Assembly: GCA_039928925.1 (NCBI GenBank)
Contig: JBDSSF010000001.1
Location: forward strand, 267,837-331,836
Length of the DNA stretch: 64,000 nucleotides
Origin: Candidatus Saccharimonadales bacterium
GTDB taxonomy: Bacteria > Patescibacteriota > Saccharimonadia > Saccharimonadales > Saccharimonadaceae
Direction of reading: 5' to 3'
The position numbers and the translations under genes are program-made. Numbering within the stretch: position 1 is the stretch's first letter; the number at the start of each line of letters is the position of its first letter. Under the pieces are notes generated by a model. That model saw only the letters and a list, made by a program, of their open reading frames with translations. It was not told where the DNA came from and made no database searches. Shown in pieces: positions 12,342 through 48,421 of this stretch.

Positions 12342-12350
12342 AGCGACGTA

Positions 12351-13337: not shown

Positions 13338-13363
13338 GTAACTGAATAGGAATTATATAGTTG

Positions 13364-13837: not shown

Positions 13838-13970
13838 ATATTTATATCATATTTACTGATCATTCTCAACTTGCAGATGAATTTATGTGCTAAATATTCT
13901 TTCCGTCCAAGGTAGTATTAAGACGAGCTAGGTAAAGTGACTAAAGAACACATATGAAAGGAGGGCATGA

Positions 13971-14234: not shown

Positions 14235-14283
14235 CCAGTTATGGTTTTTATTTTTATTGAAATGCAGTAGGATTGAAAATACT

Positions 14284-14697
14284 ATGGGCATACAAGGCGG
14301 AGAACTCACTACACTAGCTGCATATAATAGACAGCTAGAACAGCGTATTAAAGAACAGGACATTAACAACGTTGATGTCTATAGCGCCATGCTACGACTT
14401 ACAAGTAAAAAGTATGAGGCGCTGAGGCTACCTGTAATGTTAGATAATATTACAGCTCGACCAAGCGGTGTCTATGTCGTAAGCCTCTGCATGCTCGATG
14501 AACATTTTAAGAAAATGCTGACAACAGGGGGCATGATGATTGATGGTATGTGGATGCCAGCAAGAGATGACCCTTTTAAATTTGAACGTCCAATAAACGG
14601 TAGAGCGGTTGAAGGATACCTTACGGACTATTCGGATGGCGTTGATATAAGTGAACTTATGAATAAAGAACTGATTTCTGCTTCAGTAACTGAATGA
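14284..14697 (+). CDS. Hypothetical protein (137 aa from internal ATG)
   Basis: ORF 14203..14697; I prefer ATG 14284 because it avoids overlap with 13971..14234; no domain recognised. Confidence 0.4.
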   Translation: MGIQGGELTTLAAYNRQLEQRIKEQDINNVDVYSAMLRLTSKKYEALRLPVMLDNITARPSGVYVVSLCMLDEHFKKMLTTGGMMIDGMWMPARDDPFKFERPINGRAVEGYLTDYSDGVDISELMNKELISASVTE

Positions 14698-14849
14698 TGA
14701 ATTGCTATAATACTATAATTATGTTATAGTTTTATCATAATCTAAACCTTTTTTGCATAGAATTGCTCGTTTACAATAATTGTCATTTTATATCCACTCA
14801 TCAAGTGGACCACATACTTTTGTGGAAGCGACTACAGATAGGAAATCAC

Positions 14850-15803: not shown

Positions 15804-15825
15804 TCGACATCTGTACGTCGCTGAC

Positions 15826-15858
15826 GATACACCCGGAGAAACGCTCTTCGGGTGTATC
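15826..15858 (+). terminator. Hairpin after the vWA gene
   Basis: GATACACCCG-N13-CGGGTGTATC. Confidence 0.5.
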
Positions 15859-16013
15859 GAATGCAACATTTTTATGATTGGATATAAGATGATATTTGAG
15901 CAAATTGATATATAACATACTTTAAAATACTATTGATCATAAAGCATAAATATGATATTATACTAATTATTGAAACAATAGTTTCATGTAGCCAAGTACA
16001 GAAAGAAGACGTC

Positions 16014-16634
16014 ATGTCTCTCTCGCTCATCAAGGGAACGCCCGCCGAGCCGCTCGTCAACCCCAACGGACACGCCGTCAGCAAGCTGACCGTCGGTGTC
16101 GGCTGGGACAAGTCGTCCGGCGGCAAGAAGGGCTTCGCAGGAATGCTCAGCCGTGCGAAAGGGATCGATCTCGATCTCGCCGGTCTGGTGTACGACAACA
16201 CCGGGTCGGGCGTACGAGTCTGCGGCTTCGACACCCCTGATCTCTTCGGCGGCGGCATGCACCACACTGGTGACAACAAGACCGGAAAGGGCGACGGAAT
16301 CGACGAGTCGATGGAAATCGATCTCGACCGACTGCCGCCCAACATCACCGGGATCGTCGTCACCCTGAACGCCTTCAAGAAGGGTGTGTCGTTCGCGAAC
16401 ATCGCCGGCGCCGACTGCTTCTTCTCCGAGAACTTCGGGAAGGATCTGTTCGGCCTCGGCCAGTTCGCCGTCCCGATCGACGATGCGACCAAGAACACCA
16501 TCTTCATGGCGCGCATCCTGCGCGACGCGACGAGTGGTGGTTGGACGATCAAGGTCGTCAATGCCATGGGCTCAGCGATCAACGGTGACCCGCGTCAGCT
16601 CCTCAGCGTCGGAAAGGCCTACCTGACGGTCTGA
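16014..16634 (+). CDS. terD: TerD-family (tellurium-resistance/Ca-binding TerD domain) protein, high-GC
   Basis: MSLSLIKG..., KLTVGVGWD, GIDLDLAGLVYD, HTGDNKTGKGDGIDESMEIDLDRLPPNITGIVVTLN match the TerD-domain pattern; G/C strongly preferred in third codon positions. Confidence 0.85.
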   Translation: MSLSLIKGTPAEPLVNPNGHAVSKLTVGVGWDKSSGGKKGFAGMLSRAKGIDLDLAGLVYDNTGSGVRVCGFDTPDLFGGGMHHTGDNKTGKGDGIDESMEIDLDRLPPNITGIVVTLNAFKKGVSFANIAGADCFFSENFGKDLFGLGQFAVPIDDATKNTIFMARILRDATSGGWTIKVVNAMGSAINGDPRQLLSVGKAYLTV

Positions 16635-16698
16635 CCGCTTCGCTAAGCGAGCAACGAGTCACCGCCTAGAAAACGAAAACTCAATCTGAAAGGCTACA

Positions 16699-16722
16699 CG
16701 GCCATCCCTTCTGGGATGGCCG
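16699..16722 (+). terminator. Terminator hairpin after terD
   Basis: CGGCCATCCC-TTCT-GGGATGGCCG followed by CTTTCAATTTC. Confidence 0.55.
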
Positions 16723-16755
16723 CTTTCAATTTCAGAAATAAGATAGATCTTTAAT

Positions 16756-16776
16756 GTACTATACAAAGTATAGTAC
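16756..16776. promoter_or_regulatory. Operator-like perfect palindrome overlapping the -35 region upstream of the FMN reductase gene
   Basis: GTACTATAC-AAA-GTATAGTAC; TATACT -10 box at 16783-16788. Confidence 0.4.
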
Positions 16777-16870
16777 TGGTGGTATACTTAGATTAGTAAT
16801 ACAGCTCGTGACCGAATGGTCCGCCGTATGCAAAGTTATTTATACAATCTAATCGAAGGAGTTATTACTA

Positions 16871-17413
16871 ATGTCAAACATTCTTATCGTCACAGGTAGC
16901 GCGCGCGAACTTAGCGTCGGCAATAAAATTGCAACAATCGTTCAAGAAGAACTTCAAAATTATGATGACGTCACCGCAACTATCGCAAATTTAAAAGAAA
17001 TTGATTTGCCATTCTTTGACAATGAAACAGCTCCATCAGCACCAAACTTTTCGACTAGTAATGAAAAAGTACTTTCATGGACAAAGATGGTAGCGGATGC
17101 TGATACAGTTCTTCTCCTTATGCCTGAGTACAACCACTCACTTAGCGGCATTCAGAAAAATGCAATCGACTGGATATCTGCAGAATGGAATGAAAAACCA
17201 GTTAGTATTATTGGTTACGGATGGGGTGGCGCGGCGCTTGCTCATATCACCGCTAAGGAAGTATTTAGTAACCTCAAAGCAAAGTTACTCCCAACAACAA
17301 CACACCTTCACTTCATGAAACAACTAAACCCAGATGGTTCAGCTGTAGATGGTCAGGATATCGCTGAGCAGATTAAATTAACTCTCGATGAACTTGTCGG
17401 CAACCTAAAGTAG
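16871..17413 (+). CDS. NAD(P)H-dependent FMN reductase (flavodoxin-like fold)
   Basis: ILIVTGSAR..., LLLMPEYNHSLSGIQKNAIDW family pattern; SD GGAG upstream. Confidence 0.8.
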   Translation: MSNILIVTGSARELSVGNKIATIVQEELQNYDDVTATIANLKEIDLPFFDNETAPSAPNFSTSNEKVLSWTKMVADADTVLLLMPEYNHSLSGIQKNAIDWISAEWNEKPVSIIGYGWGGAALAHITAKEVFSNLKAKLLPTTTHLHFMKQLNPDGSAVDGQDIAEQIKLTLDELVGNLK

Positions 17414-17437
17414 CCATCACCACGTCGTTATATGGAA

Positions 17438-17466
17438 AAGGCCACTCGAAACTATCGAGTGGCCTT
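17438..17466. terminator. Bidirectional terminator hairpin between convergent genes
   Basis: AAGGCCACTCGA-AACTA-TCGAGTGGCCTT, 12-bp perfect stem. Confidence 0.6.
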
Positions 17467-17491
17467 CGCCTTTTCTGCCTTGTTCTCCGCA

Positions 17492-17887
17492 TCAGTCGAT
17501 TTCGAGACTTTCAAGAAACATCTCGACAGTTAACTGGAATGCCTGGTGTGCTCGGACCCACGGGAAACATGAAGCAACCATGAGGTAGTGGTTGACGAGC
17601 GCCGGCCCTCGTTCGTACTCGTCAGCTCGTTGGAGACAGCGAATGAGATACTCTTCGCTGTCATCCTGCATGTTTTTCCGTAGCGTGATAAACCTCTTGT
17701 CACGCACGCTGACACTCGCAGCATCAGCTACAGTGTCAATGAATGGCATCATGTAGCATGACTGAATGGCTAATACGGACATAGCCATCCACGAGTTCTG
17801 AGCTGGAATCAATACCGGTGCGGGCCTTGGTTCCGATGGATCTTTGTAGCCGTCTGGGTACCACAGCCCTTCTTTGTAATGAACCAC
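17492..17887 (-). CDS. Hypothetical 131-aa protein, high-GC cassette
   Basis: ORF track entry; GC visibly higher than flanks; hairpin directly downstream; no domain recognised. Confidence 0.5.
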   Translation of the reverse strand: MVHYKEGLWYPDGYKDPSEPRPAPVLIPAQNSWMAMSVLAIQSCYMMPFIDTVADAASVSVRDKRFITLRKNMQDDSEEYLIRCLQRADEYERGPALVNHYLMVASCFPWVRAHQAFQLTVEMFLESLEID

Positions 17888-17947
17888 GACTTCTCCTTCG
17901 GGTAGGCATGAAAAGACGATAACTAGTATAATACAAGTATTTATTTA

Positions 17948-18733
17948 TTATGTCAAACGTACACTAAGACCTAGCCCGCCGTAAACTTTACATATAAAAA
18001 CTGGTATTTCTGGCGTGCTCATTTCGGTGCTAAATGCATAGCCCAACTCATTAAAATGCCAGAGATTTTTAGTAGACTCAATCCGATTACGGATGAGCCA
18101 ACTTGCAAAAGCACCTCGCGCAACTTTGGCATGAACTACAACAAACTTAGGCTCATTTGTTTTTGGATCAATAGTTAGAAATCTTGGTGATATGATATCT
18201 GCACCTTTAAGATGCGGCAAAACTACTTTGGTATATTCAGCGGCTGAAAGATTGATGATCGGAACATCACTTGGTAGTATTTTAGCTATGCTATCTCCCC
18301 AGTATGTATAGAGATTTTTGTATCGCTCATCACTTAATCGATAGCCCATTTCTAGTCGGTACGGCATGATGCTGTCTAACGCACGCAGTACCCCGTAGAG
18401 TCCAGATAAAATATAAAGATGATCATTTGCATACCGTCGATCATTATCAGTAAATAACTGGGATTGCAGTCCGCTATAAATGTCTCCCAAAAAAGCATCA
18501 ATAGCAGGTAGTTGCTCATGCGGATTAGTGTTCCATGATCTCATCATAGTCTGTGTAGTTGTAGCCATAGGAGACGAAAGTTGCATCGGCTTCATTAGTT
18601 GATCTGCTGAAAGAGTTGAGACAAAATTCGCTAATTCTACTGCGTTCTCGAGCAGTTGCGGTGCCTGATACGTGTTGTCGTCAGACTTTCTGCGCTGCAT
18701 TGTTTTGGATGAATGAAGCAAGATTGTTAGCAT
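17948..18733 (-). CDS. yaaA: Peroxide stress protein YaaA (UPF0246/DUF328)
   Basis: MLTILLHSSKTM, FLGDIYSGL, YILSGLYGVLRALDSIMPYRLEMG, INLSAAEY, HAKVARGAF family pattern. Confidence 0.85.
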   Translation of the reverse strand: MLTILLHSSKTMQRRKSDDNTYQAPQLLENAVELANFVSTLSADQLMKPMQLSSPMATTTQTMMRSWNTNPHEQLPAIDAFLGDIYSGLQSQLFTDNDRRYANDHLYILSGLYGVLRALDSIMPYRLEMGYRLSDERYKNLYTYWGDSIAKILPSDVPIINLSAAEYTKVVLPHLKGADIISPRFLTIDPKTNEPKFVVVHAKVARGAFASWLIRNRIESTKNLWHFNELGYAFSTEMSTPEIPVFICKVYGGLGLSVRLT

Positions 18734-38349: not shown

Positions 38350-38434
38350 TGGTACGCGAGAAAGGACTTGAACCTTCACGCCCGGAGGCACTAGCTCCTA
38401 AGGCTAGCGTGTCTACCAATTCCACCACTCGCGC
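38350..38434 (-). tRNA. tRNA-Leu (anticodon UAG), class II with long variable arm, CCA encoded
   Basis: Reverse complement GCGCGAG-TG-GTG-GAATTGGTAGA-CAC-G-CTAGC-CTTAGGA-GCTAG-variable arm-GAAGG-TTCAAGT-CCTTT-CTCGCGT-A-CCA folds as a cloverleaf. Confidence 0.9.
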
Positions 38435-38537: not shown

Positions 38538-40160
38538 ATGAGTAAAGTAGCGACGTACCTACAGGAGCATATTCAAGGTGAGGTTTCGACTGATCCAGCA
38601 ACCCTTAGTCATATGAGCACTGATCTCAGTGTCCTTAGTATTAAGCCTGAAATGGTTGTATATCCACGATCATCGAGCGATATTCGCAAAATAGCCAGAT
38701 TCTCATGGCAGCTTGCTGAAAAAGGACATATCTTACCTTTAACAGTTCGTGGTGACGGAAGTGACCTTACTGGCGCAGCAATCGGTAGCGGTATTATTAT
38801 TGCAACAACTGCCCATCTAAATAGCCTATTTGAATTTGATCAAAAACAGAAGCTAATTAGACTTCAACCTGGCCTTAGCCTCAAAAGTCTTAACGATGCT
38901 TTGTCTCTGCAAGGCATGGCCGTTCCGCCGCTTTCAAACGTTGCCTACGGAACGATTGGCGGTGCTGTCGGTAACAACGCTACAAGCCCATTATCTGGCA
39001 AGTACGGTGACATCAGAGAATGGACTCATCAACTCGAGGTTGTACTTGCTAGTGGGGACATGCTACAGACAGGGAGACTTTCAAAAAGAGACTTAAACAA
39101 GAAAAAAGGTCTCCAAGGCTTCGAAGGTCAAATATATAGAGAACTAGATCATCTCATCGAAGACAACAAAGTTCTTATTGATAATAATGCGCCTGAAAAT
39201 GTCCGAGATAATGTTGGATATACATCGCTCGCAAAAGTTAAAAAACATGACGGATCGTTTGACCTCACTCCACTTATCGTTGGTAGTCAGGGGACACTTG
39301 GCATTGTATCTGAGCTTATTTTAAAGACTGATTTTGTCAGTGATAAGTGGGCAGCAGCAGCAATCTCGTTTGGCGATCTTACTGAAGCTCGGGACGCTGT
39401 CGATCAACTGCGTAAGTACGATCCGACTATCTTAGAGTTCTATGATGGTGAATTATTTGCGGACGCATTAGAACGCGGCAAAAAATATGATTTTTACGAT
39501 GAGACAATAACAAAAGCAGTCGTGATCATAGGTTTTGATGACTTTAGTGATCGTGCTAGGGCAAAGAAACTCAAGAAGTTAACAAAATGGGCACAAAATT
39601 TACCAGTTAAACTCTTGACCGGACTAGACACTGAAGCAGCCGCAGTCCTCGCTCTAAGAGAAGTTACGATATTTAGGGTTAATCCGAATAAAAAGGATAT
39701 ATCATCGCCACCACTATTTGATGGTGCCTATGTACCGTGGGAGCGATTTGAAGATTTCTCAATAGCGGCAAGACAGCTCGCAGAAAAGCATCGTGTTTCA
39801 TTGCCTCTCTATGGTCGTCCCATAGAAAATGTCTACTCAACACGGCCCCTTCTAGAGCTTAAAAAAGTGGGTGATAAACAAAAAGTCTTTAAACTACTTG
39901 ATGAATACTCAAATCTTGTTGTACACCACGGCGGTCACTTGATCGGCCAGGATGGTGAAGGTCGTTTGAAGGCACGTTTTGCCCATAAACAACTTGATGA
40001 TGACATTCTTGCCGTCTTTAATGAAGTAAAGCGAATTTTCGACCCGCATGGAATTTTGAATCCGGGTGTCAAACAATCGACCGATATGAAAGACCTTGTA
40101 TCTCATCTTCGTCCAGACTATGACACAAGTAAGTTCGCCGACTACTCAATCTATAACTAG
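38538..40160 (+). CDS. FAD-binding oxidoreductase (GlcD / D-lactate dehydrogenase-like, PCMH-type FAD domain)
   Basis: VVYPRSSSDIRKIARF...LTVRGDGSDLTGAAIG FAD_binding_4 pattern; C-terminal FDPHGILNPG. Confidence 0.85.
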   Translation: MSKVATYLQEHIQGEVSTDPATLSHMSTDLSVLSIKPEMVVYPRSSSDIRKIARFSWQLAEKGHILPLTVRGDGSDLTGAAIGSGIIIATTAHLNSLFEFDQKQKLIRLQPGLSLKSLNDALSLQGMAVPPLSNVAYGTIGGAVGNNATSPLSGKYGDIREWTHQLEVVLASGDMLQTGRLSKRDLNKKKGLQGFEGQIYRELDHLIEDNKVLIDNNAPENVRDNVGYTSLAKVKKHDGSFDLTPLIVGSQGTLGIVSELILKTDFVSDKWAAAAISFGDLTEARDAVDQLRKYDPTILEFYDGELFADALERGKKYDFYDETITKAVVIIGFDDFSDRARAKKLKKLTKWAQNLPVKLLTGLDTEAAAVLALREVTIFRVNPNKKDISSPPLFDGAYVPWERFEDFSIAARQLAEKHRVSLPLYGRPIENVYSTRPLLELKKVGDKQKVFKLLDEYSNLVVHHGGHLIGQDGEGRLKARFAHKQLDDDILAVFNEVKRIFDPHGILNPGVKQSTDMKDLVSHLRPDYDTSKFADYSIYN

Positions 40161-40201
40161 GTTGAAATAAAGCTTTCGCTCGGATATTATACTTTTGGTA
40201 T

Positions 40202-40287
40202 GCACGAGTGGCGGAATGGTAGACGCGCTAGCTTCAGGTGCTAGTGTCCTTTGGGATGTGGAAGTTCGAGTCTTCTCTCGTGTACCA
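40202..40287 (+). tRNA. tRNA-Leu (anticodon CAG), class II, CCA encoded; integration target
   Basis: GCACGAG-TG-GCG-GAATGGTAGA-CGC-G-CTAGC-TTCAGGT-GCTAG-variable arm-GGAAG-TTCGAGT-CTTCT-CTCGTGT-A-CCA. Confidence 0.9.
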
Positions 40288-41895
40288 AACAGAACGAACG
40301 TCGTTTATTGCGACGTTCTTTCTCTTGTCAGAGTAGGTTACGACATCTATCGGTGCGGTCACCATCGTCTGTTTCATAGTCTGAACCGGTTCAAGATATT
40401 TAATGGGTTGAATTCGTATGCTTCCATTAGCAAAGATCATGCGTTCGCCGAGTTTTGACAGTACTTCGCGTTGTTTGATCGGATCGTTACTGTCGAAATC
40501 TGATTTTGCATATTTTGCTAGGTCGAAATACTCACGTGCTTCCTCGTGAACATGTCTTTCAGTATCGTTCGTATTTTCAGATTGTTGTCGTAACATCTTG
40601 AGTCGCTGCTCAATCTTTTTCCTCTCACCGTCATAGAACACCTCATCACATCGTCCAGTGTAGAGCATGCGCTGTAAACCATACATTTCCCCCTCAGTGT
40701 CGTTAAGGGCTTTCTGCTGCGCTGTGCGGACTGTTTCACGCTGTTTTTCTTGCTCATCATTCCATTGGTTTAGGTGTTTTATTGCGAACTGATAAAACTC
40801 ATCACGGATTGTATATCGTGATAGCTCATTTTTTACCATGTCGGATAATTGTTGCGGCTTTAACTTTACTTTATTCGGACAATCAAAATTCTGTCGTTTA
40901 TTGGTGCAATAGATGTATTCAAAAGCCTGCTCATTGCCGTTTTTGTATTTACGTATTTTTCTTGTATAAGTGATCGAACAGCCACATTCCCCACACTGGA
41001 TCATTCCACGATATACACTGAAATAATCAAAACCACGTTCGATCATAGGCCGTTGATGACTTATTTTACTTAATCGCGCCTGTACCTTATCGAATTCAAC
41101 TTTCGTAATCATAGGCAAATGTTGACCTGGATGTAACTCTTTGTTGAAGTTGAGCATGCCATAGTAAAAGGGATTGCGAAACATTGCATATACCCCAGAC
41201 ACGCTTAGTGGAGTTCCGCCCCGCTTCCTTCTTTGGATAGATTTCAATCCTAACTCTTTGTCTGCTTTGCGAGCTATCTCGCTAATTGTCAACGATGGAT
41301 CCATTGCCCATGTCCATAATTGTTTGTATGACTGCCAGCGTTCATCGTCAGGCACAATAATATTTCCACGTAGAGGGTCAGTCGTATTTAAGTACCCCAT
41401 AGGTGCAAGATGCGGTAACCAGCCTTTTGCTACCTTGCTACTCATGCCGCGTTTGATATCACGTTGCAAATCACGGCTAAATTGCGTGGCCATGCCCGCT
41501 TCGACAGTAAACATCAAAACGTTGTCTTCGGGAAAATAATCACGTTCGGCTGTGGCAAACATCTTCAGTCTACCCTCTATAAGAAGTTGTTGAATCAGAC
41601 CCGATTCCAGAGGGTTTCGAGCAATACGGTTTAACTTCCAGCAAAGAATACCATCAACTTTTCCAGACTGAATCATTTCAACTAGTCGGTCGAATTCTTG
41701 TCGCCGGCCGGGTATTTTAGCAGATCTGGATTCGGACAATATGGCGTCATTGGCAATTGTAATGCCACGATGAGATGCGATACTACGCATAATATCAATC
41801 TGGTCACCGATTGACTGAACTTGTCTATCTTCATCTTCAGTAGACTTACGTGCATATATCACAAAACGTAATTTACTTATATCTCTATCATGCAT
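40234..41895 (-). CDS. Large serine recombinase (integrase)
   Basis: Resolvase-type catalytic domain (FVIYARKSTEDEDRQVQSIGDQ, WKLNRIARN), recombinase domain (GWLPHLAPMGY), zinc ribbon (CGECGCS...CTNK...CPNK), C-terminal coiled coil; ATG 41895 preceded by GGAGAA; the 3' end runs antisense into the tRNA. Confidence 0.9.
   Translation of the reverse strand: MHDRDISKLRFVIYARKSTEDEDRQVQSIGDQIDIMRSIASHRGITIANDAILSESRSAKIPGRRQEFDRLVEMIQSGKVDGILCWKLNRIARNPLESGLIQQLLIEGRLKMFATAERDYFPEDNVLMFTVEAGMATQFSRDLQRDIKRGMSSKVAKGWLPHLAPMGYLNTTDPLRGNIIVPDDERWQSYKQLWTWAMDPSLTISEIARKADKELGLKSIQRRKRGGTPLSVSGVYAMFRNPFYYGMLNFNKELHPGQHLPMITKVEFDKVQARLSKISHQRPMIERGFDYFSVYRGMIQCGECGCSITYTRKIRKYKNGNEQAFEYIYCTNKRQNFDCPNKVKLKPQQLSDMVKNELSRYTIRDEFYQFAIKHLNQWNDEQEKQRETVRTAQQKALNDTEGEMYGLQRMLYTGRCDEVFYDGERKKIEQRLKMLRQQSENTNDTERHVHEEAREYFDLAKYAKSDFDSNDPIKQREVLSKLGERMIFANGSIRIQPIKYLEPVQTMKQTMVTAPIDVVTYSDKRKNVAINDVRSVWYTREDSNFHIPKDTST
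40281..40288 (+). repeat. Putative attL core (TGTACCAA)
   Basis: Last 7 nt of the tRNA plus 1 nt; identical octamer at 47763-47770. Confidence 0.4.
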
Positions 41896-42203
41896 GGCTT
41901 TCTCCAACTAAAAAGGCGGCTTGGTTGTTGACACAGTACATAGCACGAAGCCATTTTCCGATACCAAGCCGCCATTTCAGACGGAAAACAAAAGGCTCGC
42001 GCCAGATATGTACAGTGTCAACATGTATTATTGTAATGCAATTATTAATCATTGTTAAGCTCTCGTGGTTGTAATCCAGCGACAAGTGCTATTAGATTTG
42101 ATGCTTCGATGCTCGCGATATCATCGCTCAATTGAACTCCATACTGACGATAGTATATCGCTTGAAATTCTTTTATTGTTTCGTCATTCAACCGCATAAA
42201 ACC

Positions 42204-42845
42204 TTAAAAAGGGATGTCCTTCAGATATTCAGCTATGGGATCATGTGCATCGTTAGCATTAGGTTGCGTATCCAAATTACGATACGCTTCGTCCAAGTCC
42301 TTGGTGTATTGTTCGTGACTAAAATTATCCATCTCTTCGAGGGTGGGAGAATGATCACGTTGCATCTTTTCGTTTCGCATGTACGATGACGTGGGAATAA
42401 GAAAATCGGCTTCGTAATCATGTCGTGCAACTTGTTCTGCACGTTTACGATATTCATTTTGACGTCGTTCTTGTAAGATACGCGAGTCTATTTCAACACC
42501 AGGTTGGTATGATTTGGGTATATACTGACCTTCTTTGGCACGTGCATTTTTCACGTATATACCAAACAAAGCACCTGGATTATTAACTCGCCTGCCTGTT
42601 AAAACGGTATGCAACCAGTATTCTACGCGTTCCGTACCGAATTGATTAATAACCCCACAATACCACGTTCGCCATTGCGCATTATCAAAGGTATCGACCA
42701 ATTTATCAGCCAATTTATCAACTGCTTCAACGTCAGTATTCAATTGGTTTTCTGTGTATGTGGACAGTTGTGTACGATTGCCATTAACCAGGTACTCAAT
42801 TGGTTTATTGGAATCATTTGTATCAGTTTGGTTTACAGTAGGCAT
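42204..42845 (-). CDS. Element ORF, hypothetical (213 aa)
   Basis: ORF track entry; same strand as the integrase; no domain recognised. Confidence 0.5.
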   Translation of the reverse strand: MPTVNQTDTNDSNKPIEYLVNGNRTQLSTYTENQLNTDVEAVDKLADKLVDTFDNAQWRTWYCGVINQFGTERVEYWLHTVLTGRRVNNPGALFGIYVKNARAKEGQYIPKSYQPGVEIDSRILQERRQNEYRKRAEQVARHDYEADFLIPTSSYMRNEKMQRDHSPTLEEMDNFSHEQYTKDLDEAYRNLDTQPNANDAHDPIAEYLKDIPF

Positions 42846-42898
42846 ATGTCAATTGTTGAACATAATGGCCATTTCACCCGTAACGTTTAAAGAGTTGT

Positions 42899-43483
42899 TT
42901 AAATGTTACGATTTTTCGGTTGGTGTCGGTTATAATACAGCCTCATTTCCGCATAATGTGGGTAAAGACGAGCTATCCTTTCGTCGTAAATGTCCGAATC
43001 TTCATCTGTTAATGCGGCATGAATTTGCTTGTATGATCTTCCGGCTCGTAATCCCTTGAAAACAGCATATGTTACGAAAGGGTATGCAGGTTCTTTCGCT
43101 TTAGGTTTTTTAGTACCAGACTTACGTGCGGTTTGTATCGTTCGCCAGGCGCGCATAAGTTGCGCTTCTGTGGCATTGTCATCAAGAACGATGGTTGTCT
43201 TATTTTCTTTGATGTCATAGCCAATTTTTACCCCTTGTTTAGAAGTGCCAACAGGTAGAGTTTGTGCCCAAGCCAAATGACGAAATTCGTCAATACTCAG
43301 TCCCCATCTTTCTGAGAACCCCAGATATATTTCATAAAGTCGTGAATGATCTGTGGGGTGGCGTCGCTTCCACTCATAGACAATCTTCGCATCATAATGA
43401 AACTCAGGGTCGTCATGGACGTTCTGAAGAAAATGCTCGCGGTCAGTTATGGGTTCGTTCCTACCGGTACCTTTTTTTGTCAT
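42899..43483 (-). CDS. Element ORF, hypothetical (194 aa)
   Basis: ORF track entry; first gene of the leftward int-containing gene string. Confidence 0.5.
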   Translation of the reverse strand: MTKKGTGRNEPITDREHFLQNVHDDPEFHYDAKIVYEWKRRHPTDHSRLYEIYLGFSERWGLSIDEFRHLAWAQTLPVGTSKQGVKIGYDIKENKTTIVLDDNATEAQLMRAWRTIQTARKSGTKKPKAKEPAYPFVTYAVFKGLRAGRSYKQIHAALTDEDSDIYDERIARLYPHYAEMRLYYNRHQPKNRNI

Positions 43484-43721
43484 GAATCAATGATACCATC
43501 ACATGTCCTGTATAATGATGCACATGTGGCATGTCCACTTGACCTAAAGCCACGCGCAAGCGAAGGTATGGCCAAAACAAATCCAACGACAAGAAACAGC
43601 TCATCGTCAGAGCCTTCTTGTCGTTGGTTGCACCGGAAACGGTGTAGGCGGCTTAGGCCGTCCTGGCGGTGGGCTTTTTTGTTTGCCTAGCACGGTAGTC
43701 TTAGTCATAAAAGGAGATGGA

Positions 43722-44246
43722 ATGTTTCGACGGAAGAAGACAATTGAAGCAAAGCAAGTAGCGTTTATTTACATGGAAAACTACATGGAAAGGCGCGATG
43801 AAATACTTGGCACACTTGAGATGATATTGGTTAAGCAATTTGGCGAGGACAAAAAGCGGCAAATTTTCTTAAGTCGACAAGCAATGAACTATGTTGAAGC
43901 ATGGATAATTGCATTCGACATAATGCCATTATTCTCTTTGCCTATATTTAAGGGTAAAAGAGTGGACGGTTGGATTTTGCGTCTTGCCAGTGAATATTTA
44001 CAGGTAGAGAAAGATTGGTTGTTTGACCTGGTTAAGGATTTTATTGTAGACATTAATTTTGATAATGACGACAGAACTAAGGCACGGTCACAAGGCTTAT
44101 TCTCCCGTAAAATCAATCAACTTGTATTTAATGTCAAGGGTGATCCGCTATTCATGACCCAGCTTGATATGTTCATAACCGAAAACACGACCCATGAATG
44201 GAAGCTCATAGAGGAGCATTACAAAATCATTCCCACTAATGAATAG
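43722..44246 (+). CDS. Element ORF, hypothetical (174 aa)
   Basis: ATG 43722 preceded by AAAGGAGAtggaATG; the ORF-track start 43683 lacks an RBS. Confidence 0.5.
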   Translation: MFRRKKTIEAKQVAFIYMENYMERRDEILGTLEMILVKQFGEDKKRQIFLSRQAMNYVEAWIIAFDIMPLFSLPIFKGKRVDGWILRLASEYLQVEKDWLFDLVKDFIVDINFDNDDRTKARSQGLFSRKINQLVFNVKGDPLFMTQLDMFITENTTHEWKLIEEHYKIIPTNE

Positions 44247-44256
44247 TAGTAGTGAA

Positions 44257-44610
44257 TTACATCAGATTGATGTTTAACAAAACTGTTTCTGTTGGCTTCT
44301 CTCTCGTGTGAGCTAACATGCTATATGCCTTCATTGCCATCTCGACGGCTTTTAGACGAACTATTGTAGGCTCGTTTTCGTTATGAATAATATCCGTTAA
44401 TCGCTGCATGATTTCATCTGGTTTTATAACCGACAATTTACCGATATTTTCCGATAACCATTCAGGTTGAAGATGTGTCATATTCCGTGCTGTTTGATCC
44501 GAATAGCCTGCTTGTAATGCGCTGCGATATGAATTACCAAATGATGGGCTATCGGGGTTGCTGTACGCTGTAATGTATGTCGTTTGGCGTGGAGTAATGT
44601 GTTTTATCAT
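44257..44610 (-). CDS. Phage small-terminase-like (Terminase_2-type HTH) protein
   Basis: ITPRQTTYITAYSNPDSPSFGNSYRSALQAGYSDQTARNMTHLQPEWLSENI follows the TerS N-terminal pattern (L/ITPkQ..F..Y......GN...A...AGYS..tA). Confidence 0.6.
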   Translation of the reverse strand: MIKHITPRQTTYITAYSNPDSPSFGNSYRSALQAGYSDQTARNMTHLQPEWLSENIGKLSVIKPDEIMQRLTDIIHNENEPTIVRLKAVEMAMKAYSMLAHTREKPTETVLLNINLM

Positions 44611-44654
44611 GGTTTTGGTTTCTCAATCGTTTGTTAAGACGTATTATATATGAT

Positions 44655-45542
44655 ATGACACAAAAAAAGCTATCACAGAAAGAAATGGATGAAATTACTA
44701 ATCGCTCTCACGAAGAAGCAGAGCGCGATTTTAAAGATTTCAAAGAACATATTGCGCGTGGTGAATGCGGAATTTGCGACGAACCTTTGAGTAGCTTTGA
44801 TGAAATGGAGCCATGTATGCATTGGTTATTAATGCCACCGGGTTTTCGAAAAAAACACATGAAATCTGTATTCGAGATATTCACTTATGACCGCATCGAA
44901 GCATATCTTCGATGGTATGCAAATTCACACAGTCCACTTATGAACATAAATGACCTAGTTGAGGAGCACGACGGAACAAAATTGCGCGCTCTCACAATTA
45001 AACATGGTCAACTGGAATGGTCATTTTCATTTGCACAAGGATGCTTGGAAGGTAAAGACGGAAATCATGGACCGCATTACCACTTTCAAATGCGCATTGA
45101 TGGCAAGCCATTCCATAACTATAGTGACCGTCATATCAAAATGAACGACTATGAACTTTGGATGTTCGATATTGATATTGGTCAAAACCCTCAATTCAAA
45201 CGTAACCAAGGCTTTGGAGCCGGAATGCAAAGTACAGTTGACAATATTGAAACTGGCGAACTATTAAAAACCTTCAAATACACCGAAGACTATGAAAATG
45301 CAGCCTTCAATACCAGTACGATTGTCATGGCCGAAGAAGGTAAAACTATTGATGTCGATGAAATAATTGCTATGTATAAAATTGCGCGTGAAACTGGTAC
45401 ACCTGTTCATCAGCAAATAAAAAACCTGAAAAACGTCGCTACAACAAAAGTCATTGTCGAGCCTGGAGAGGGTGTGCCGCATCCTGCTCAGCGCAACCCT
45501 GTGCGTCCAGGCCGTAAGAAAAATAAAGACAAAAAACACTAA
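44655..45542 (+). CDS. Element ORF, hypothetical with Cys/His cluster (295 aa)
   Basis: GECGICDEPLSSFDEMEPCMHW zinc-ribbon-like; HGPHYHFQ; basic C-terminal tail. Confidence 0.5.
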   Translation: MTQKKLSQKEMDEITNRSHEEAERDFKDFKEHIARGECGICDEPLSSFDEMEPCMHWLLMPPGFRKKHMKSVFEIFTYDRIEAYLRWYANSHSPLMNINDLVEEHDGTKLRALTIKHGQLEWSFSFAQGCLEGKDGNHGPHYHFQMRIDGKPFHNYSDRHIKMNDYELWMFDIDIGQNPQFKRNQGFGAGMQSTVDNIETGELLKTFKYTEDYENAAFNTSTIVMAEEGKTIDVDEIIAMYKIARETGTPVHQQIKNLKNVATTKVIVEPGEGVPHPAQRNPVRPGRKKNKDKKH

Positions 45543-45682
45543 GCTAGGGATCCGTAACGGCTAACTCACTCGTTCGAGTATAGTTTTATCATTGTCTGTG
45601 TTTCATTCGGCAGTACACACAACAAACAGGAACTGTATGATTTGAGAATATCTGAATAATCGAAGTGTGGGATAATAGGCGC

Positions 45683-46600
45683 ATGAGAATCGAGAGAACA
45701 AAAGCCAAAGAGAACCAAATACCCACAAGGCAATACCCGTCCTATACTGCCGATGGTAAAGTTCGTCGAATTACACTTGGAAAATCTTCATTCACAGTTC
45801 CATATCGATGGACTTACTACCAGTATTTGATACTTGGGGTGTATACAATGGTTTTTTCTAAGGAGTTTTTGAACGACGACAATAATGACTCTGTATTACG
45901 AAAGATGTACAAAGCACATATTGACAAAGTCCAGTCTGAGACAAGCCTCTTTATACTAACCAATGCGGATGCATACCTCATATATCTGGCATCGGATCTG
46001 GAGCAGCTGGTTGCAAAAAATTCTTTACCAGAAGGAATTATTAAAAGGTTAAGGTCTACTAATGATGGTGAGATGAGGGGTGCTATATATGAAATCACTA
46101 TGGCTGCTGCGGTAACGCGCACAGGTTATAAGATTGATTGGCTAACTGAACCATCCAGACCTGAATTTACCGCATATGGGAAAGAGGTACTTATTGATTT
46201 TGAAGCAAAGCGGCGTGACAGGACGGGCAGAATTAACTACGACTTGGAGATTGAAGTGAGAGCAATCGAAAAAAATCTCAGAAAAGCGTTAAAGAAAAAG
46301 ACCATGAATCAGTATGTGATTTTTATGGATACAGATTTACCTCCTGGACCCGCACAAAAATATAATGAAATCATGGAAGCAATGATGAAAAAGATTGGCT
46401 TACATGAACAAAAGAAAATAGTAGTTGTTACAACCAACACCGGATATGAACATGACCCAACTGTTACCGACTTTGGCAAAAATTCAGTAGCAATGTACAA
46501 ATCTGATGACGGAGTAAACTTGCATGAAGTGAAGAAAATAATATTACAGATGCACGCAAAATTACCAAAAGATGCCTCTTCAAGCGGATGGCCAATATAA
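45683..46600 (+). CDS. Element cargo ORF with PD-(D/E)xK-like motif (putative nuclease); start uncertain (45665/45683/45848)
   Basis: GAIYEITMAAAV helix followed by PEFTAYGKEVLIDFEAKRR (PE-x12-EAK); GATAAT-N6-ATG at 45683; stop abuts the next ATG. Confidence 0.45.
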   Translation: MRIERTKAKENQIPTRQYPSYTADGKVRRITLGKSSFTVPYRWTYYQYLILGVYTMVFSKEFLNDDNNDSVLRKMYKAHIDKVQSETSLFILTNADAYLIYLASDLEQLVAKNSLPEGIIKRLRSTNDGEMRGAIYEITMAAAVTRTGYKIDWLTEPSRPEFTAYGKEVLIDFEAKRRDRTGRINYDLEIEVRAIEKNLRKALKKKTMNQYVIFMDTDLPPGPAQKYNEIMEAMMKKIGLHEQKKIVVVTTNTGYEHDPTVTDFGKNSVAMYKSDDGVNLHEVKKIILQMHAKLPKDASSSGWPI

Positions 46601-47608
46601 ATGACAAAAGACAGATCGGACAAATCAAAATCACGGCATCACTATGTTCAAAAAGCATACCTGAATGGATTTGCTGTAAACGAAAAAATTGATGTAATTA
46701 ATCGTGAAGATGGTACCGTAAGGATAACTCAACGTACATCCTCAGTTGCAAATGAAAGAGGCTTATATACGATACAGCGAGAAAATGGCGACAAGGACGG
46801 AATACTTGAAGATATATTTGCCGAAAAAGTGGAATCACCAGCAATAAAAATCATAAGAAACATGACATCAGTACTACCTTATGTTCCACGACAGAATGAA
46901 CGTCAAGTAATCGCGGAATATATGGCGTTACAGTATCTACGTACGCCAGAGGCTAAGCGACGATTTGAAGCGGAGGCGGGAAGATTTGAAGCCATTGAAA
47001 TATTTAATATGGCCAATGATTCTAAAAAGGTAGGTGTTTATCTCGGTAAAAAAGGTGAAAAAAATGATAATGATTCGGTTGCTGCATATCGTGACAAGGT
47101 CATTAAATCACTTCACGACAACGAGATAATTCCGAACAGTACGATGTGGTATCGACAGATAATAAAGAGTCTACCGCATATTGCAGATATTATGACTGCA
47201 AGATACGGTTGGCATCTCCTGTATTATGACGATCCTGTTTTACTGACAGGTGATCATCCTGTAATACTTCGACAGATAAGGGAAAGCTGGATGGGTACTG
47301 GGTTTATGAATGCGGATGAAATAATATTTCCGTTAAATGTTCGATACGCACTTTTGCTTTCCACTGACTTTGGAATCAAAGAGCAGGTTAACACAAACGC
47401 CAACCCATCAACTGCGAAAATGATAAATTGGTATGTAAAGCGCAATAGCTATATGGAAGTATATTCGCATCCATCTCTTACGAGTGAATATGCTGGTGAG
47501 GCACTAGGTCAAAAGATTCTCACAGAAACTACAGGCATGGATATGCAAGAAATTGGATTTTTGAATAACTACAGTGGGGTTTTGTTACGCAAAAAACCAA
47601 TGAGATAG
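46601..47608 (+). CDS. DUF4238 domain protein
   Basis: N-terminal HHYVQKAYLNGFA, later QYLRTPEAKRRFE, WHLLYYDDPVLLTGDHPVIL, IIFPLNVRYALLL: the characteristic DUF4238 blocks. Confidence 0.8.
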   Translation: MTKDRSDKSKSRHHYVQKAYLNGFAVNEKIDVINREDGTVRITQRTSSVANERGLYTIQRENGDKDGILEDIFAEKVESPAIKIIRNMTSVLPYVPRQNERQVIAEYMALQYLRTPEAKRRFEAEAGRFEAIEIFNMANDSKKVGVYLGKKGEKNDNDSVAAYRDKVIKSLHDNEIIPNSTMWYRQIIKSLPHIADIMTARYGWHLLYYDDPVLLTGDHPVILRQIRESWMGTGFMNADEIIFPLNVRYALLLSTDFGIKEQVNTNANPSTAKMINWYVKRNSYMEVYSHPSLTSEYAGEALGQKILTETTGMDMQEIGFLNNYSGVLLRKKPMR

Positions 47609-47762
47609 TAGGTTCTAATGCTTCGCTATATTATGTATTTGAATATGGAACCTAGCAGCCAAGCTGGAACGGGGGTGGGTAGATCAAACTGTAATGTCTA
47701 TACCAACACCTGTGAATTGATGATGTCGTTGTGAATGCAGGTTACAACTTCTTGCACGGTGC

Positions 47763-47770
47763 TGTACCAA
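47763..47770 (+). repeat. Putative attR core (TGTACCAA)
   Basis: Identical to 40281-40288. Confidence 0.4.
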
Positions 47771-47809
47771 TAAAAACAGAGGCCTAGCGGTCTCCTTTTT
47801 TATTGGTAC
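47764..47809. terminator. Long bidirectional terminator, probably the original tRNA-Leu terminator
   Basis: GTACCAATAAAAA-CA-GAGGCC-TAGC-GGTCTC-C-TTTTTTATTGGTAC. Confidence 0.6.
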
Positions 47810-47818
47810 ACTATAGTA

Positions 47819-48421
47819 ATGAACGAAGTAGAAATCGGGGTTGGTCCTCATGAAAAACCTTGGCCTAGTGGGCTGATGTACGATACAGACCTATTAGAGA
47901 AGGGCGATCGCCGTAACGTTGAGGATAAATATCGCTACTGGACAGTTGAAGCTATAGTAAATGACCTCGATAAAAGTCGTAGTGGACTTCATGTTGCAAT
48001 TGAAAACTGGCAGCATGATAGCAATATTGGGACAATTGTTCGTAGTGCAAATGCATTCAACGTGACAAGTGTGCATATTATCGGTAAACGTCATTGGAAT
48101 CGCCGTGGAGCTATGGTAACGGACAGGTATCTCCATATTTTTCACCACCAAACGGTTGAAGATTTCGTGATTGCGATGAATGAACGGCGTATAATTGCCA
48201 TAGATAACATTAAAGGCGCAACGCCCCTTGCAAAGGCTAAGTTACCAAAAAAAGCCGTACTAGTGTTCGGCGGTGAAGGACCAGGACTTAGCGTTGAAAT
48301 GCAAAAATGCGCTGAGCAAATGGTCATGATTGAACAATTTGGCAGTACGCGCTCAGTAAATGTAGGAGTTGCAGCAGGTATTGTCATGTATCAGTGGACT
48401 CGTCAACATCTTATAGTGTGA
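47819..48421 (+). CDS. SpoU/TrmH-family RNA 2'-O-methyltransferase
   Basis: HDSNIGTIVRSANAFNV, LVFGGEGPGLS, SVNVGVAAGIVMYQW motifs. Confidence 0.85.
   Translation: MNEVEIGVGPHEKPWPSGLMYDTDLLEKGDRRNVEDKYRYWTVEAIVNDLDKSRSGLHVAIENWQHDSNIGTIVRSANAFNVTSVHIIGKRHWNRRGAMVTDRYLHIFHHQTVEDFVIAMNERRIIAIDNIKGATPLAKAKLPKKAVLVFGGEGPGLSVEMQKCAEQMVMIEQFGSTRSVNVGVAAGIVMYQWTRQHLIV

Follow-up and report, generated by a model that had tools for sequence, protein, structure and literature searches.

A serine-recombinase integrative element with a small terminase homologue and satellite-like features at a tRNA-Leu gene of a Saccharimonadales bacterium

Introduction

PICI are roughly 10-15 kb in size, and the immunity of satellite P4 is RNA-based. 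PICMI of Vibrio and the tycheposons of Prochlorococcus combine tyrosine recombinases with primase/replication functions. Five core components make up the PICI scheme: an integrase, an AlpA/MerR/Stl regulator, a primase-replicase, a capsid-morphogenesis gene and the small terminase TerS (PMC10085698). Serine and tyrosine integrases are treated as interchangeable within it.

Here we describe a small mobile element in a stretch of 64,000 nucleotides (the window) from a Candidatus Saccharimonadales bacterium. An initial annotation had likened its architecture to that of PICI-type satellites, which holds for the integrase and TerS, two of the five core components. No AlpA/MerR/Stl gene was detected in Pfam, PHROG or NCBIfam and no primase-replicase or capsid-remodelling (capsid-morphogenesis) gene in these libraries or PADLOC, five ORFs carrying no annotation, and because replication, capsid-remodelling and AlpA/Stl genes were not detected we do not count the element as a PICI member. 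As in PICI and SaPI, the element is site-specifically integrated, pairs an integrase with a phage-homologous TerS without TerL, capsid, tail or lysis genes, bears defence-type accessory cargo at one end and is far smaller than a phage. In contrast to these systems it has a large serine recombinase, a CPR host and a LOOT RNA at its control region, and the element and its relatives measure 3.7-7.5 kb, below the PICI size given above.

Satellite P4 resembles the element in being tRNA-integrated with defence cargo hotspots, and a small RNA unit likewise heads one arm of the divergent control region; one relative (L013) carries a gene with a P4_cII domain. However, the element is devoid of psu/delta/sid, epsilon and alpha primase homologues (Pfam, PHROG), its recombinase is of the serine and not the tyrosine type, and Rfam does not link LOOT to the CI or C4 RNAs of P4, its likening to the P4 immunity RNA being one of analogy. 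With the phiC31/Bxb1 integrases, SCCmec Ccr and XisF elements it shares the combination of Resolvase, Recombinase and Zn ribbon domains and a short att core identity, and as in other large serine recombinase elements unidirectional integration and a directionality factor are expected. The differences are that its targets are tRNA/tmRNA 3' ends, the classical niche of tyrosine integrases, that the recombinase gene itself would contain the attP core, at its last codons, and that a conserved structured leader precedes this gene. PICMI and tycheposons are comparable in that they too are hitchhikers, either very small or aimed at tRNA genes, with a reduced gene repertoire plus cargo.

Results

The element occupies positions 40289-47770 of the window (7,482 bp) and is inserted at the 3' end of tRNA-Leu(CAG) (40202-40287, plus strand; ARAGORN; Rfam tRNA, 51 bits), which supplies the left half of attB and is still intact with the insert in place. 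Both element ends share the 8-bp core TGTACCAA. A repeat search recovered the two copies previously reported, attL at 40281-40288, consisting of the tRNA acceptor 3' strand, CCA and one further nucleotide, and attR at 47763-47770, which was also placed by junction alignment with L002. By itself this repeat is weak evidence, because the octamer occurs six times in the window versus about two expected and 2 of 100 shuffles reached six. The right-hand copy forms the 5' arm of a 22-nt hairpin that is 86% complementary (47763-47784 / 47789-47810) and followed by a T-run. This hairpin (47763-47810, plus strand; inverted repeat I4 and terminator scan) can be aligned to the terminator next to the tRNA in L002 and is the original tRNA-Leu terminator, the right half of attB, moved by 7.5 kb; the right end is indeed the old tRNA-terminator junction, as had been suggested. 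A hairpin and T-run borne by the element within the 3' end of the recombinase ORF (40296-40318, plus strand; terminator scan) stands in for the displaced terminator, a design also seen in L023, L024, L025 and L014.

Decisive support for insertion comes from empty or intact junctions in related genomes. We rebuilt the empty site by joining 40150-40288 to 47771-47900, and it aligned with both L002 and L003. In L003 the tRNA is followed by the terminator and directly adjoining SpoU methylase gene (SpoU 72% identical), and in L002 the alignment runs across the junction (...TGTACCAA joined to TAAAAATTGAGATC..GGTCTCAATTTTTATTG), where tRNA and terminator are undivided. The integrative element proposed by the initial annotation, which had suggested looking for an empty site in relatives, is borne out by these loci. 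In L002 the same interval contains unrelated genes for a GDSL lipase-like protein, an IS200 transposase, DHODH and NUDIX. The insert is also atypical in composition, with a GC content of 40.7% versus 43.5% and a tetranucleotide distance of 0.22 versus 0.128 +/- 0.024, the maximum of any other segment of equal size being 0.188. We are highly confident that 40289-47770 is a serine-recombinase integrative element.

The recombinase gene (40234-41895, minus strand) encodes 553 aa from the ATG at 41895; the mechanically called ORF comprises 557 codons (40234-41907, minus strand) with a TTG start at 41907. Its domain content identifies the product as a large serine integrase and not a DNA invertase. 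Resolvase (8.6e-17), Recombinase (1.2e-7) and Zn_ribbon_recom (4.6e-7) each score above the Pfam cut-off, and phrog_95 integrase is matched at 1e-57; NCBIfam scores for XisF and CcrA/B/C are far under their cut-offs. It has 2163 homologues, and the names of many place them in Saccharibacteria or Patescibacteria. The gene had been described as abutting the tRNA; in fact the ORF runs into it, and the last 16-18 codons are antisense tRNA-Leu. A comparison of the C-termini of P0015-P0017 revealed a conserved ..WY encoded by the att core TGGTAC. In all five clade-A loci the element adjoins a tRNA with the 3' end GTGTACCA or GCGTACCA, and in each case (5/5) the recombinase ORF overlaps, at its end, a convergent tRNA whose last bases are GTACCA. 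Overlap likewise occurs with tRNA-Lys in L014 and with tmRNA in L019, and related recombinases in this pose on tRNA/tmRNA 3' ends number seven.

This arrangement suggests that the element was integrated by its own recombinase at TGTACCAA, within the terminal bases of tRNA-Leu(CAG), and that the codons for ..WY at the end of the recombinase gene hold the putative attP core. An attP core at that position would leave the tRNA intact and set the element-borne terminator behind it, while the host terminator would be shifted 7.5 kb to the right and the C-terminal tail of the recombinase swapped for antisense-tRNA codons.

A previously undescribed structured RNA forms the conserved leader 5' of the recombinase (41900-42023, minus strand; inverted repeats I2 and I14). 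It consists of a long stem, GGCGGCUUGG/CCAAGCCGCC, and a U-run, followed by the RBS and ATG. RNAalifold on alignment A8 of five loci yielded 33 pairs with compensatory changes in 11, and no Rfam match was found at E<=1. A mechanical ORF at the leader (41888-42085) is probably not a gene.

The second conserved RNA is LOOT (Rfam RF03000, 43541-43662), which together with a 3' extension ending in a U-run spans 43541-43682 on the plus strand. The covariance-model match is full length (model positions 1-121 of 121) and scores 63 bits versus a gathering score of 46.4. The extension pairs with the P2 loop to give a 13-bp long-range helix supported by covariation, 97% paired and with both sides changed in six pairs, and a conserved TATAAT-like promoter box is located about 25 nt upstream of the RNA. 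Eight loci, the one in the window and seven related ones, have LOOT at their divergent control region with a score exceeding the gathering score, always on the strand opposite TerS and opposite the recombinase where one is present. The Rfam entry lists LOOT as a metagenome-derived sRNA only, and GenBank phages contained no match. At L013 the Phage_P4_cII-domain gene lies downstream of LOOT.

Altogether the insert contains nine protein ORFs and two conserved RNA elements. The initial annotation had counted eight ORFs and overlooked LOOT, the recombinase leader, the DUF4238 cargo and the membership of a recurrent family, but was right that structural genes are missing: no insert ORF matched capsid, portal, tail, TerL or lysis families in Pfam, PHROG, NCBIfam or PADLOC. 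Just 5' of the recombinase, a 50-aa ORF (42045-42197, minus strand) is conserved in relatives (49% identity to a 49-aa ORF of L009, 48% to L023), and its conserved position makes it a candidate directionality or regulatory factor. The recombinase operon further includes a 213-aa ORF (42204-42845, minus strand) that matched nothing in Pfam, PHROG, NCBIfam or PADLOC and whose AF2 single-sequence model (pLDDT 44) was unusable. A 194-aa ORF (42899-43483, minus strand) belongs to a fast-evolving core family with weak homology to ORFs of 195 aa in L005 and 186 aa in L009 (alignment A6); the family has the conserved C-terminal motif P..LxYAIF..R..G....IF...YYNRYRP and no PDB or Pfam match.

Downstream of LOOT, a 187-aa ORF (43683-44246, plus strand) likely starts at an ATG near 43722, behind AAGGAG. 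It had no match in Pfam, PHROG, NCBIfam or PADLOC, and its slot is variable: the proteins encoded there in L005, L021 and L014 are unrelated and either small or of membrane type. The cargo on the plus strand begins with a 303-aa ORF (44631-45542), equally without a match in these four libraries, and a 311-aa ORF (45665-46600) with only a weak PADLOC match to HEC-02B (0.0067). The latter is probably co-transcribed with the DUF4238 gene (46601-47608, plus strand), since its stop directly abuts the next start (46600/46601). The DUF4238 product matched Pfam PF14022 at 2.4e-33 over profile positions 1-279 of 281; neither PADLOC nor a tblastn search of GenBank phages returned a match. A DUF4238 protein from an E. 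coli P2 hotspot protects against T7 (PMC9122126), and the cargo gene is a candidate single-gene anti-phage defence. The equivalent slot of L005 holds a KAP NTPase.

The ORF at 44257-44610 (minus strand, 117 aa) had been singled out for an N-terminal small terminase signature, which profile, structure and context comparisons uphold; by homology it is a real, though shortened, TerS of the Terminase_2 / SF6 G1P family. It matched phrog_51 at 8.5e-5, and the profile from alignment A1 matched SF6 G1P (3zqp) at 5.5e-5, with some 35 residues of the central region absent from the alignment. With profile A4 the match to SF6 G1P improved to 2.3e-11 and became nearly full length, so that the homology reaches beyond the HTH. 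Against Pfam Terminase_2 (PF03592) the protein scored 19.7 bits, under the 26.1 cut-off; 29 of 61 relatives did match this family. Among the 20 best Foldseek matches in BFVD, small terminases accounted for 13 of the 14 named proteins (best 4e-5), and the best PDB matches were also small terminases, none of them significant (E 0.07-0.8). All six matches in GenBank phages fell on annotated terS genes. The nearest homologue outside the elements sits in a phage packaging block, on contig L020, where the gene for a 29%-identical protein precedes those for TerL, portal and capsid, with TerL 2.3 kb downstream. The element itself contains no TerL by Pfam and PHROG, and hence none adjoining TerS.

The window element is one of a modular Saccharimonadales family located at tRNA/tmRNA 3' ends and measuring ~3.7-8 kb where ends can be placed. 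Its parts are the serine integrase with its structured leader, small conserved ORFs, a phage-derived TerS, LOOT and variable cargo. The recombinases fall into three divergent clades, each accompanied by TerS. Sister elements of the same clade lack TerS (L024, L025) or LOOT (L023, L025), showing that neither is needed for integration. The minimal relative, L023, is 3.7 kb long and has no room for a primase-replicase. An HTH_17 gene upstream of the recombinase occurs in the relative L005 only.

Discussion

We favour an integrative element driven by a serine recombinase and spreading in a satellite-like manner, a pair of claims that jointly we judge slightly more probable than its opposite. Satellite-like spread is the most likely mode because structural, TerL and detectable replication genes are missing and yet TerS is strongly conserved. 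After excision, TerS would single out the element's DNA for packaging by a helper phage, with that phage's large terminase and capsids. For the narrower statement that the window element is a phage satellite, our assessment is evenly poised or a shade lower.

A doubtful though serious alternative is an integrative island that is no satellite and spreads by natural transformation or vertical descent; its TerS would then have been repurposed to regulate as a DNA-binding protein, to assist recombination or to interfere with phages. The shortened TerS of 117 aa, the two TerS-free sisters with the same recombinase clade and the defence-type cargo, which fits a defence island, are compatible with this scenario, as is the failure to find a helper, a replication module or a capsid-remodelling gene. 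Scans of IMG/VR viral contigs likewise returned no TerS relatives and no close recombinase relatives, and one conserved LOOT sequence pattern was absent in an exact-match scan. However, no protein of the family is as conserved as TerS, which remains 51-69% identical across elements whose recombinase clades share a mutual identity of only ~20%. This argues that TerS works with some partner besides the recombinase, and is not expected of a directionality factor, since such a protein has to match the recombinase of its own element. Homology covering nearly all of SF6 G1P, and a nearest non-element homologue within a packaging block, also speak against repurposing.

Much less probable is a decayed prophage: a temperate phage with an LSR-type integrase would have entered the tRNA-Leu site and then shed its structural genes, so that integrase, terS and a handful of other ORFs survive. 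The integrase and terS genes are phage-derived, and the distant TerS homologue of L020 does lie within a complete morphogenesis block. Decay is difficult to reconcile with a compact layout of intact ORFs that recurs in at least eight independent loci and three recombinase clades, terS being frameshifted in L019 only. Moreover, both ends are precise att junctions beside an undisturbed host terminator, and thus there is no deletion scar; nor did we find any structural-gene fragment (Pfam, PHROG) or a full-length prophage with these modules. That there was no insertion at all, with a chance octamer repeat, native variable genes and an invertase/resolvase acting on nearby inverted repeats, is scarcely credible: the six octamer copies, with which the repeat is not significant by itself, and the unrelated genes in the same interval of L002 would allow it, but it is contradicted by the L003 empty site, the junction alignment, the outlying composition, the Recombinase and Zn-ribbon domains typical of large serine integrases and the pose shared by seven related recombinases.

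Returning to satellite-like spread, the combination of a phage packaging gene, the orphan LOOT RNA and a likely anti-phage gene makes the element a good candidate to represent the first family of phage satellites from a CPR lineage. LOOT gains a genomic context, the recombinase/TerS elements of Saccharimonadales, and its 13-bp 3' extension helix is an addition outside the Rfam model. A more speculative proposal, which we consider unlikely at present, is that tRNA/tmRNA serine-integrase elements with LOOT and a short TerS constitute unrecognised minimal CPR satellites, in which structured RNAs, and not protein repressors, would run the switch, with LOOT acting at the divergent control region and an attenuator-like leader before the integrase, and TerS alone would redirect helper packaging. 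If this is true, CPR satellites of 3.7-8 kb would be among the smallest known.

Insertion at the tRNA 3' end

The initial annotation had placed an integrative element at the 3' end of tRNA-Leu(CAG) (40202-40287, + strand; ARAGORN and Rfam), with the old terminator of the tRNA displaced to its right-hand end. The octamer TGTACCAA occurs at 40281-40288 and 47763-47770, but also at four other sites in the window. Because these six copies compare with ∼2 expected, the recurrence proves nothing alone, and we rejected it as stand-alone proof of insertion. The right-hand copy forms the 5' arm of a 22-nt hairpin (47763-47784 with 47789-47810) followed by a T-run. Housekeeping genes flank the site, with RecG, RsmD and an FAD-linked oxidase to the left and SpoU methylase, HisRS, trigger factor and ClpP to the right.

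When one genome per species was scanned with the oxidase as query, three Saccharimonadales relatives were found, and all three displayed the identical order of tRNA-Leu(TAG), oxidase and tRNA-Leu(CAG). In the window this second leucine tRNA lies upstream of the oxidase gene (38350-38434, − strand). One relative, L003, is a clean empty site: a terminator follows the tRNA, and a SpoU gene, 72% identical to that of the window, begins 58 nt past it. The closest relative, L002, whose oxidase is 82% identical, has a tRNA that continues directly through TGTACCAA into TAAAAATTGAGATC..GGTCTCAATTTTTATTG, which is the junction of window 47763-47810. Joining window position 40288 to 47771 resulted in a rebuilt sequence that aligns across the junction with both relatives, whereas the actual left junction departs from them exactly after TGTACCAA. 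The proposed insertion and its displaced terminator are thereby borne out by the empty-site comparison that the initial annotation had called for. The 7,482-bp insert (40289-47770) has a GC content of 40.7%, against 43.5% in the rest of the window, and a tetranucleotide distance of 0.22 from it, compared with 0.128±0.024 (maximum 0.188) for other equal-sized windows. A large serine recombinase (LSR)-type insertion has rebuilt the tRNA end and supplied a substitute terminator, and the insert is almost certainly a serine-recombinase integrative element.

The predicted attP reads ..GCACGGTGC-TGTACCAA-ACAGAACGAACG.. and the predicted attB ..CTCTCG-TGTACCAA-TAAAAACAGAGG... Exact-protein look-ups for other assemblies of the strain, in which attB or attP forms were sought, returned one Logan contig only, with the same integrated arrangement; SRR26386597 holds the same element. 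Between the tRNA-Leu(CAG) terminator and SpoU, L002 (11811-17365) carries no element but a GDSL-lipase-like 756-aa protein, an IS200-type Y1 transposase, DHODH and NUDIX genes. These genes are unrelated, and the interval is therefore a variable hotspot regardless of the element. Elsewhere in the window, GC content rises to 49-54% at 15001-17000 (∼43% otherwise), and no Rfam match was found there.

The recombinase and its leader RNA

The recombinase ORF (40234-41907, − strand) contains Resolvase, Recombinase and Zn_ribbon_recom domains, all over Pfam cut-offs, and matches PHROG 95 'integrase' at 1e-57, which identifies an LSR and not a small invertase. The DNA invertase that had been raised as an alternative was rejected on this domain content and on the tRNA context. 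Translation probably starts at ATG 41895 behind a GGAG box, giving a 553-aa product identical to the database protein P0015. The enzyme had been described as abutting the tRNA on the opposite strand; the strand was correct, but the genes overlap, since the stop codon lies at 40234 and the final 18 codons are antisense tRNA. The P0015 C-terminus represents the integrated form, and the relatives P0016 and P0017 end in ..WYR and ..WYT. In clade A, the clade of the window's own recombinase, the conserved C-terminal 'WY' is encoded by TGGTAC, the core itself. The attP core therefore sits in the last codons of the integrase, and the protein tail varies with integration state. At E≤1e-30 the enzyme has 2163 homologues, many of them named Saccharibacteria or Patescibacteria, and no close relative was found in GenBank phages. 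The LSR would catalyse attP × attB integration at the ..GTACCA core and, together with a directionality factor, excision.

Upstream of the LSR start lies a leader (∼41900-42023, − strand) whose nucleotide sequence is conserved throughout the five clade-A loci. In the relatives it lies directly upstream of the LSR start at ∼9880-10000 in L023, L024 and L025 and at ∼11560-11690 in L009. Its terminator-like layout comprises a long stem (GGCGGCUUGG...CCAAGCCGUCC), UUUU, AGGAG and the ATG. The stem shows compensatory changes, with CUUGG/CCAAG replaced by CACGG/CCGUG in L024 and by UAUGG/CCAUA in L025, and RNAalifold returned 33 pairs, 11 with double changes. Interleaved with the long stem is a second pairing of 17 nt (42023-42007 with 41942-41926), and the two together look like an attenuator with alternative structures. 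A promoter-like TTAACA-17-TACAAT lies upstream at 42058-42030. The leader matched no Rfam family at E≤1. Given this conserved structure, the mechanically called ORF at 41888-42085 is probably not a gene. The leader RNA would limit integrase expression.

Gene content and cargo

The element ORFs were annotated with Pfam, PHROGs, NCBIfam and PADLOC. An operon on the LSR strand encodes 194-, 213- and 50-aa ORFs, followed by the structured leader and the LSR. Read along the LSR strand, LOOT RNA (43541-43662) and a 187-aa ORF (43683-44246) form a leftward unit. The small terminase (TerS) homologue (44257-44610) lies on the LSR strand. The cargo block, on the opposite strand, consists of a 303-aa ORF (44631-45542), a 311-aa ORF (45665-46600) and a DUF4238 protein (46601-47608), whose start is directly preceded by the stop of the 311-aa ORF.

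None of the element ORFs matched a capsid, portal, tail, TerL, lysis, primase, helicase, relaxase or repressor gene in these four libraries. Five ORFs had no match whatsoever, and PADLOC returned nothing beyond a weak HEC-02B match. The DUF4238 match (2.4e-33) spans the whole domain. One DUF4238 protein, encoded in a P2 prophage hotspot, suffices for strong T7 resistance (PMC9122126), and DUF4238 is among the defence systems mapped in a Pseudomonas island survey (PMC12629846); the cargo is thus predicted to be of defence type. The 194-aa core ORF had no homologues in a word-indexed search. Profiles of its family and of a 113-136-aa family had no PDB or Pfam match, and a first impression that the latter resembled SpoVG was dropped for lack of such support. 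The 213-aa ORF gave a single-sequence AF2 model with a pLDDT of 44 and showed no relation to the 113-aa ORF of L009 or to the A7 family.

A genuine small terminase homologue

When searched alone, the TerS protein scored 19.7 bits against Pfam Terminase_2, below the cut-off of 26.1, and matched PHROG 51 'terminase small subunit' at 8.5e-5. A profile (A1) built from 12 homologues at 48-69% identity matched the SF6 small terminase G1P (3zqp) at 5.5e-5, in two collinear stretches with ∼35 central residues absent. HMMER, run in full over 1.84 billion representative proteins, collected 835 relatives, mostly of 130-180 aa. Terminase_2 was matched by 29 of 61 sampled relatives (best 2.4e-10), and a wider profile (A4) matched 3zqp at 2.3e-11 from residues 21 to 154. 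The best PDB matches of the AlphaFold model (pLDDT 81.6) were small terminases (PaP3, NV1 and Sf6), none of them significant (E 0.07-0.8). Among the 20 best structure matches in BFVD, 13 of the 14 named proteins were small terminases, the top one at E=4e-5. In GenBank phages all six tblastn matches fell on genes annotated as terminase small subunit.

The phage contig L020, from a metagenome, encodes a 29%-identical TerS 2.3 kb upstream of TerL (phrog_2, 6.6e-25), together with an SU10-type portal and a capsid gene, and is a candidate relative of helper phages. Along 9929-18189 of this 43.8-kb contig lie TerS, a Big_2-domain protein, TerL, the portal and the capsid gene. The element therefore carries a genuine TerS homologue: the small terminase initially called at 44257-44610 is upheld by profiles, structure matches, phage genes and the L020 context, and profile searching did not point to the unrelated HTH protein considered as its alternative.

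LOOT RNA in a divergent gap

The LOOT model RF03000 matched window 43541-43662 over its full length with 63 bits (gathering score 46.4), placing the RNA in the gap from which the 194-aa operon and the 187-aa ORF diverge. With its 3' extension the RNA occupies 43541-43682 (+ strand). Seven related loci also scored above the gathering score, all on the − strand: L005 (11482-11602), L009 (9810-9921), L013 (14077-14199), L014 (11376-11496), L019 (11203-11327), L021 (2402-2524) and L024 (8915-9027). LOOT always lies on the strand opposite to TerS and, if an LSR is present, opposite to the LSR; in most cases variable small ORFs follow it in a leftward unit. The phage contig L020 lacks LOOT, and GenBank phages gave no match to it.

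Conserved flanking features are a TATAAT-like box ∼25 nt upstream and, downstream, a U-run. Outside the Rfam model, a 3' tail (CUGGCGGCGAGCU) just ahead of the U-run is able to base-pair with the conserved apical loop of P2 (AGCUCGUCGUCAG). This helix of 13 bp is 97% paired across the eight copies, with six pairs changed on both sides. It is in competition with the apical stem of P2 (4 bp) and would result in either a pseudoknot or a closing helix that resembles a terminator. For the whole LOOT structure, none of 500 column shuffles and no slid control attained the observed values. By-eye inspection found no consistent pattern of complementarity or co-variation linking LOOT to the recombinase leader, and the idea was dropped.

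In Rfam, LOOT is a plain sRNA known from metagenomes, and the literature searched held no paper giving it a genomic context. It would act at the divergent switch and may be an sRNA or an attenuator. Satellite P4 has RNA-based immunity, and LOOT may follow a comparable logic; the one observation behind this comparison is a P4_cII-domain gene downstream of LOOT in L013.

A recurrent, modular element family

All TerS homologues in a Saccharimonadales-type context with enough downstream DNA are followed, at a distance of 1.3-3 kb, by an LSR on their own strand. TerS across these elements is 51-69% identical to that of the window, whereas their LSRs fall into three clades that are mutually only ∼20% identical. 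L005-L008, from the complete 1.13-Mb genome CP060232 and three other samples, have an LSR abutting ychF, an HTH_17 gene upstream of it and a KAP NTPase cargo. In CP060232 the clade-B recombinase ORF overlaps the annotated 5' end of ychF (L005 14921-14997) and not a tRNA; the recombinase clades therefore differ in the targets they choose. In L009-L012 the LSR is 42% identical to that of the window and overlaps tRNA-Arg(GCG) at its end; the corresponding overlap is with tRNA-Lys(CTT) in L014 and with a tmRNA in L019, where terS is frameshifted. L021 has the gene order of the window. The L019 recombinase/LOOT element on the tmRNA 3' end has coordinates 11795-13426 (+) and 13383-13775 (−). The tmRNA 3' end shares 16 matching nt with a tRNA-Ala 3' end 11.4 kb away at 1923, which may mark the other boundary of the element.

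Three further clade-A loci, L023, L024 and L025, were reached from LSR homologues, and in each of them the LSR 3' end overlaps a convergent tRNA. The target tRNAs of all five clade-A loci end in GTGTACCA or GCGTACCA, and in all five the core is followed by an element-borne hairpin and T-run. L023 is a bare 3.7-kb string of TerS, 189-, 128- and 49-aa ORFs and LSR, without LOOT; L024 has LOOT and lacks TerS; and L025, sized at ∼5 kb by a 12-bp boundary repeat, has neither. Integration therefore needs neither TerS nor LOOT. In a search for direct repeats that might delimit the sister elements, L025 showed its 12-bp repeat and L019 the 16-bp match between tmRNA and tRNA-Ala; the remaining elements showed none, in line with expectation for serine recombinases. 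The element thus belongs to a recurrent modular family.

The LOOT end adjoins a Y-family polymerase (IMS), a small ORF and an SRAP (abasic-site processing) gene in two different elements (L009 6244-8420 and L024 6142-8520); this set may be cargo common to both, serving mutagenesis or repair, and not host genes. L013 (10001-14200) holds a 48%-identical TerS and LOOT beside HigB, M78 peptidase, Beta_protein and the Phage_P4_cII-domain gene, with a 3037-aa ABC-toxin-like gene lying upstream. The 7 kb present showed no recombinase. From this setting, the TerS-LOOT pair may extend beyond Saccharimonadales elements.

Discussion

The element is a member of the large-serine-recombinase integrative elements, among which its tRNA/tmRNA 3'-end niche and an attP core inside the integrase stop region are unusual. 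Initially it had been likened to PICI-type phage satellites. The integrase, TerS and cargo of that architecture are present, and TerS-encoding PICI/SaPI elements are closest in working, but with only two of the five PICI core components it is not a member (core list in PMC10085698). It has nothing in common with the marker sets of P4, PLE and cfPICI.

As a satellite, the element would use TerS to direct the TerL of a helper phage to its own DNA. We regard spread in this manner as about an even proposition, if anything slightly short of it. It is favoured by the conservation of TerS independently of recombinase clade, by the absence of transfer, replication and structural genes, and because we know of no function for TerS-family proteins other than packaging. 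It is weakened by the shortened TerS, by the existence of TerS-less sister elements, by the lack of a helper phage or packaging evidence among our findings, and by the absence of the family from IMG/VR, where scans with the recombinase, TerS, the TerS alignment and a LOOT pattern gave no matches. The main rival, an integrative defence island that has repurposed its TerS, accords with the DUF4238 cargo and the TerS-less sisters and has the conservation of TerS across clades to account for; we judge it unlikely, and less probable than satellite spread. A prophage remnant, of which TerS would be a vestige, is highly improbable.

Saccharibacteria and other CPR bacteria have tiny genomes, and to our knowledge their mobile elements are little characterised. 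In a full-text literature search, Saccharibacteria, phage satellites and small terminases did not come together in any paper. A large survey reports satellites mainly from Proteobacteria and Firmicutes and to some extent from Actinobacteria, and the word Patescibacteria is absent from it (PMC10085698).

The added value of the finding lies in the LOOT context and the leader RNA. Even if the elements are not satellites, an orphan RNA now has a definite genomic setting and roles that can be tested, another conserved RNA stands ahead of the integrase, and predicted defence-type cargo (DUF4238, KAP NTPase) is seen to move on these elements. The analysis also defines a clade of large serine integrases whose att sites are short, embedded in tRNAs and predictable (..GTACCA), and this may interest genome engineers and Saccharibacteria geneticists. 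If they are satellites, these elements would be among the smallest known and would extend phage parasitism to episymbiotic ultra-small bacteria.
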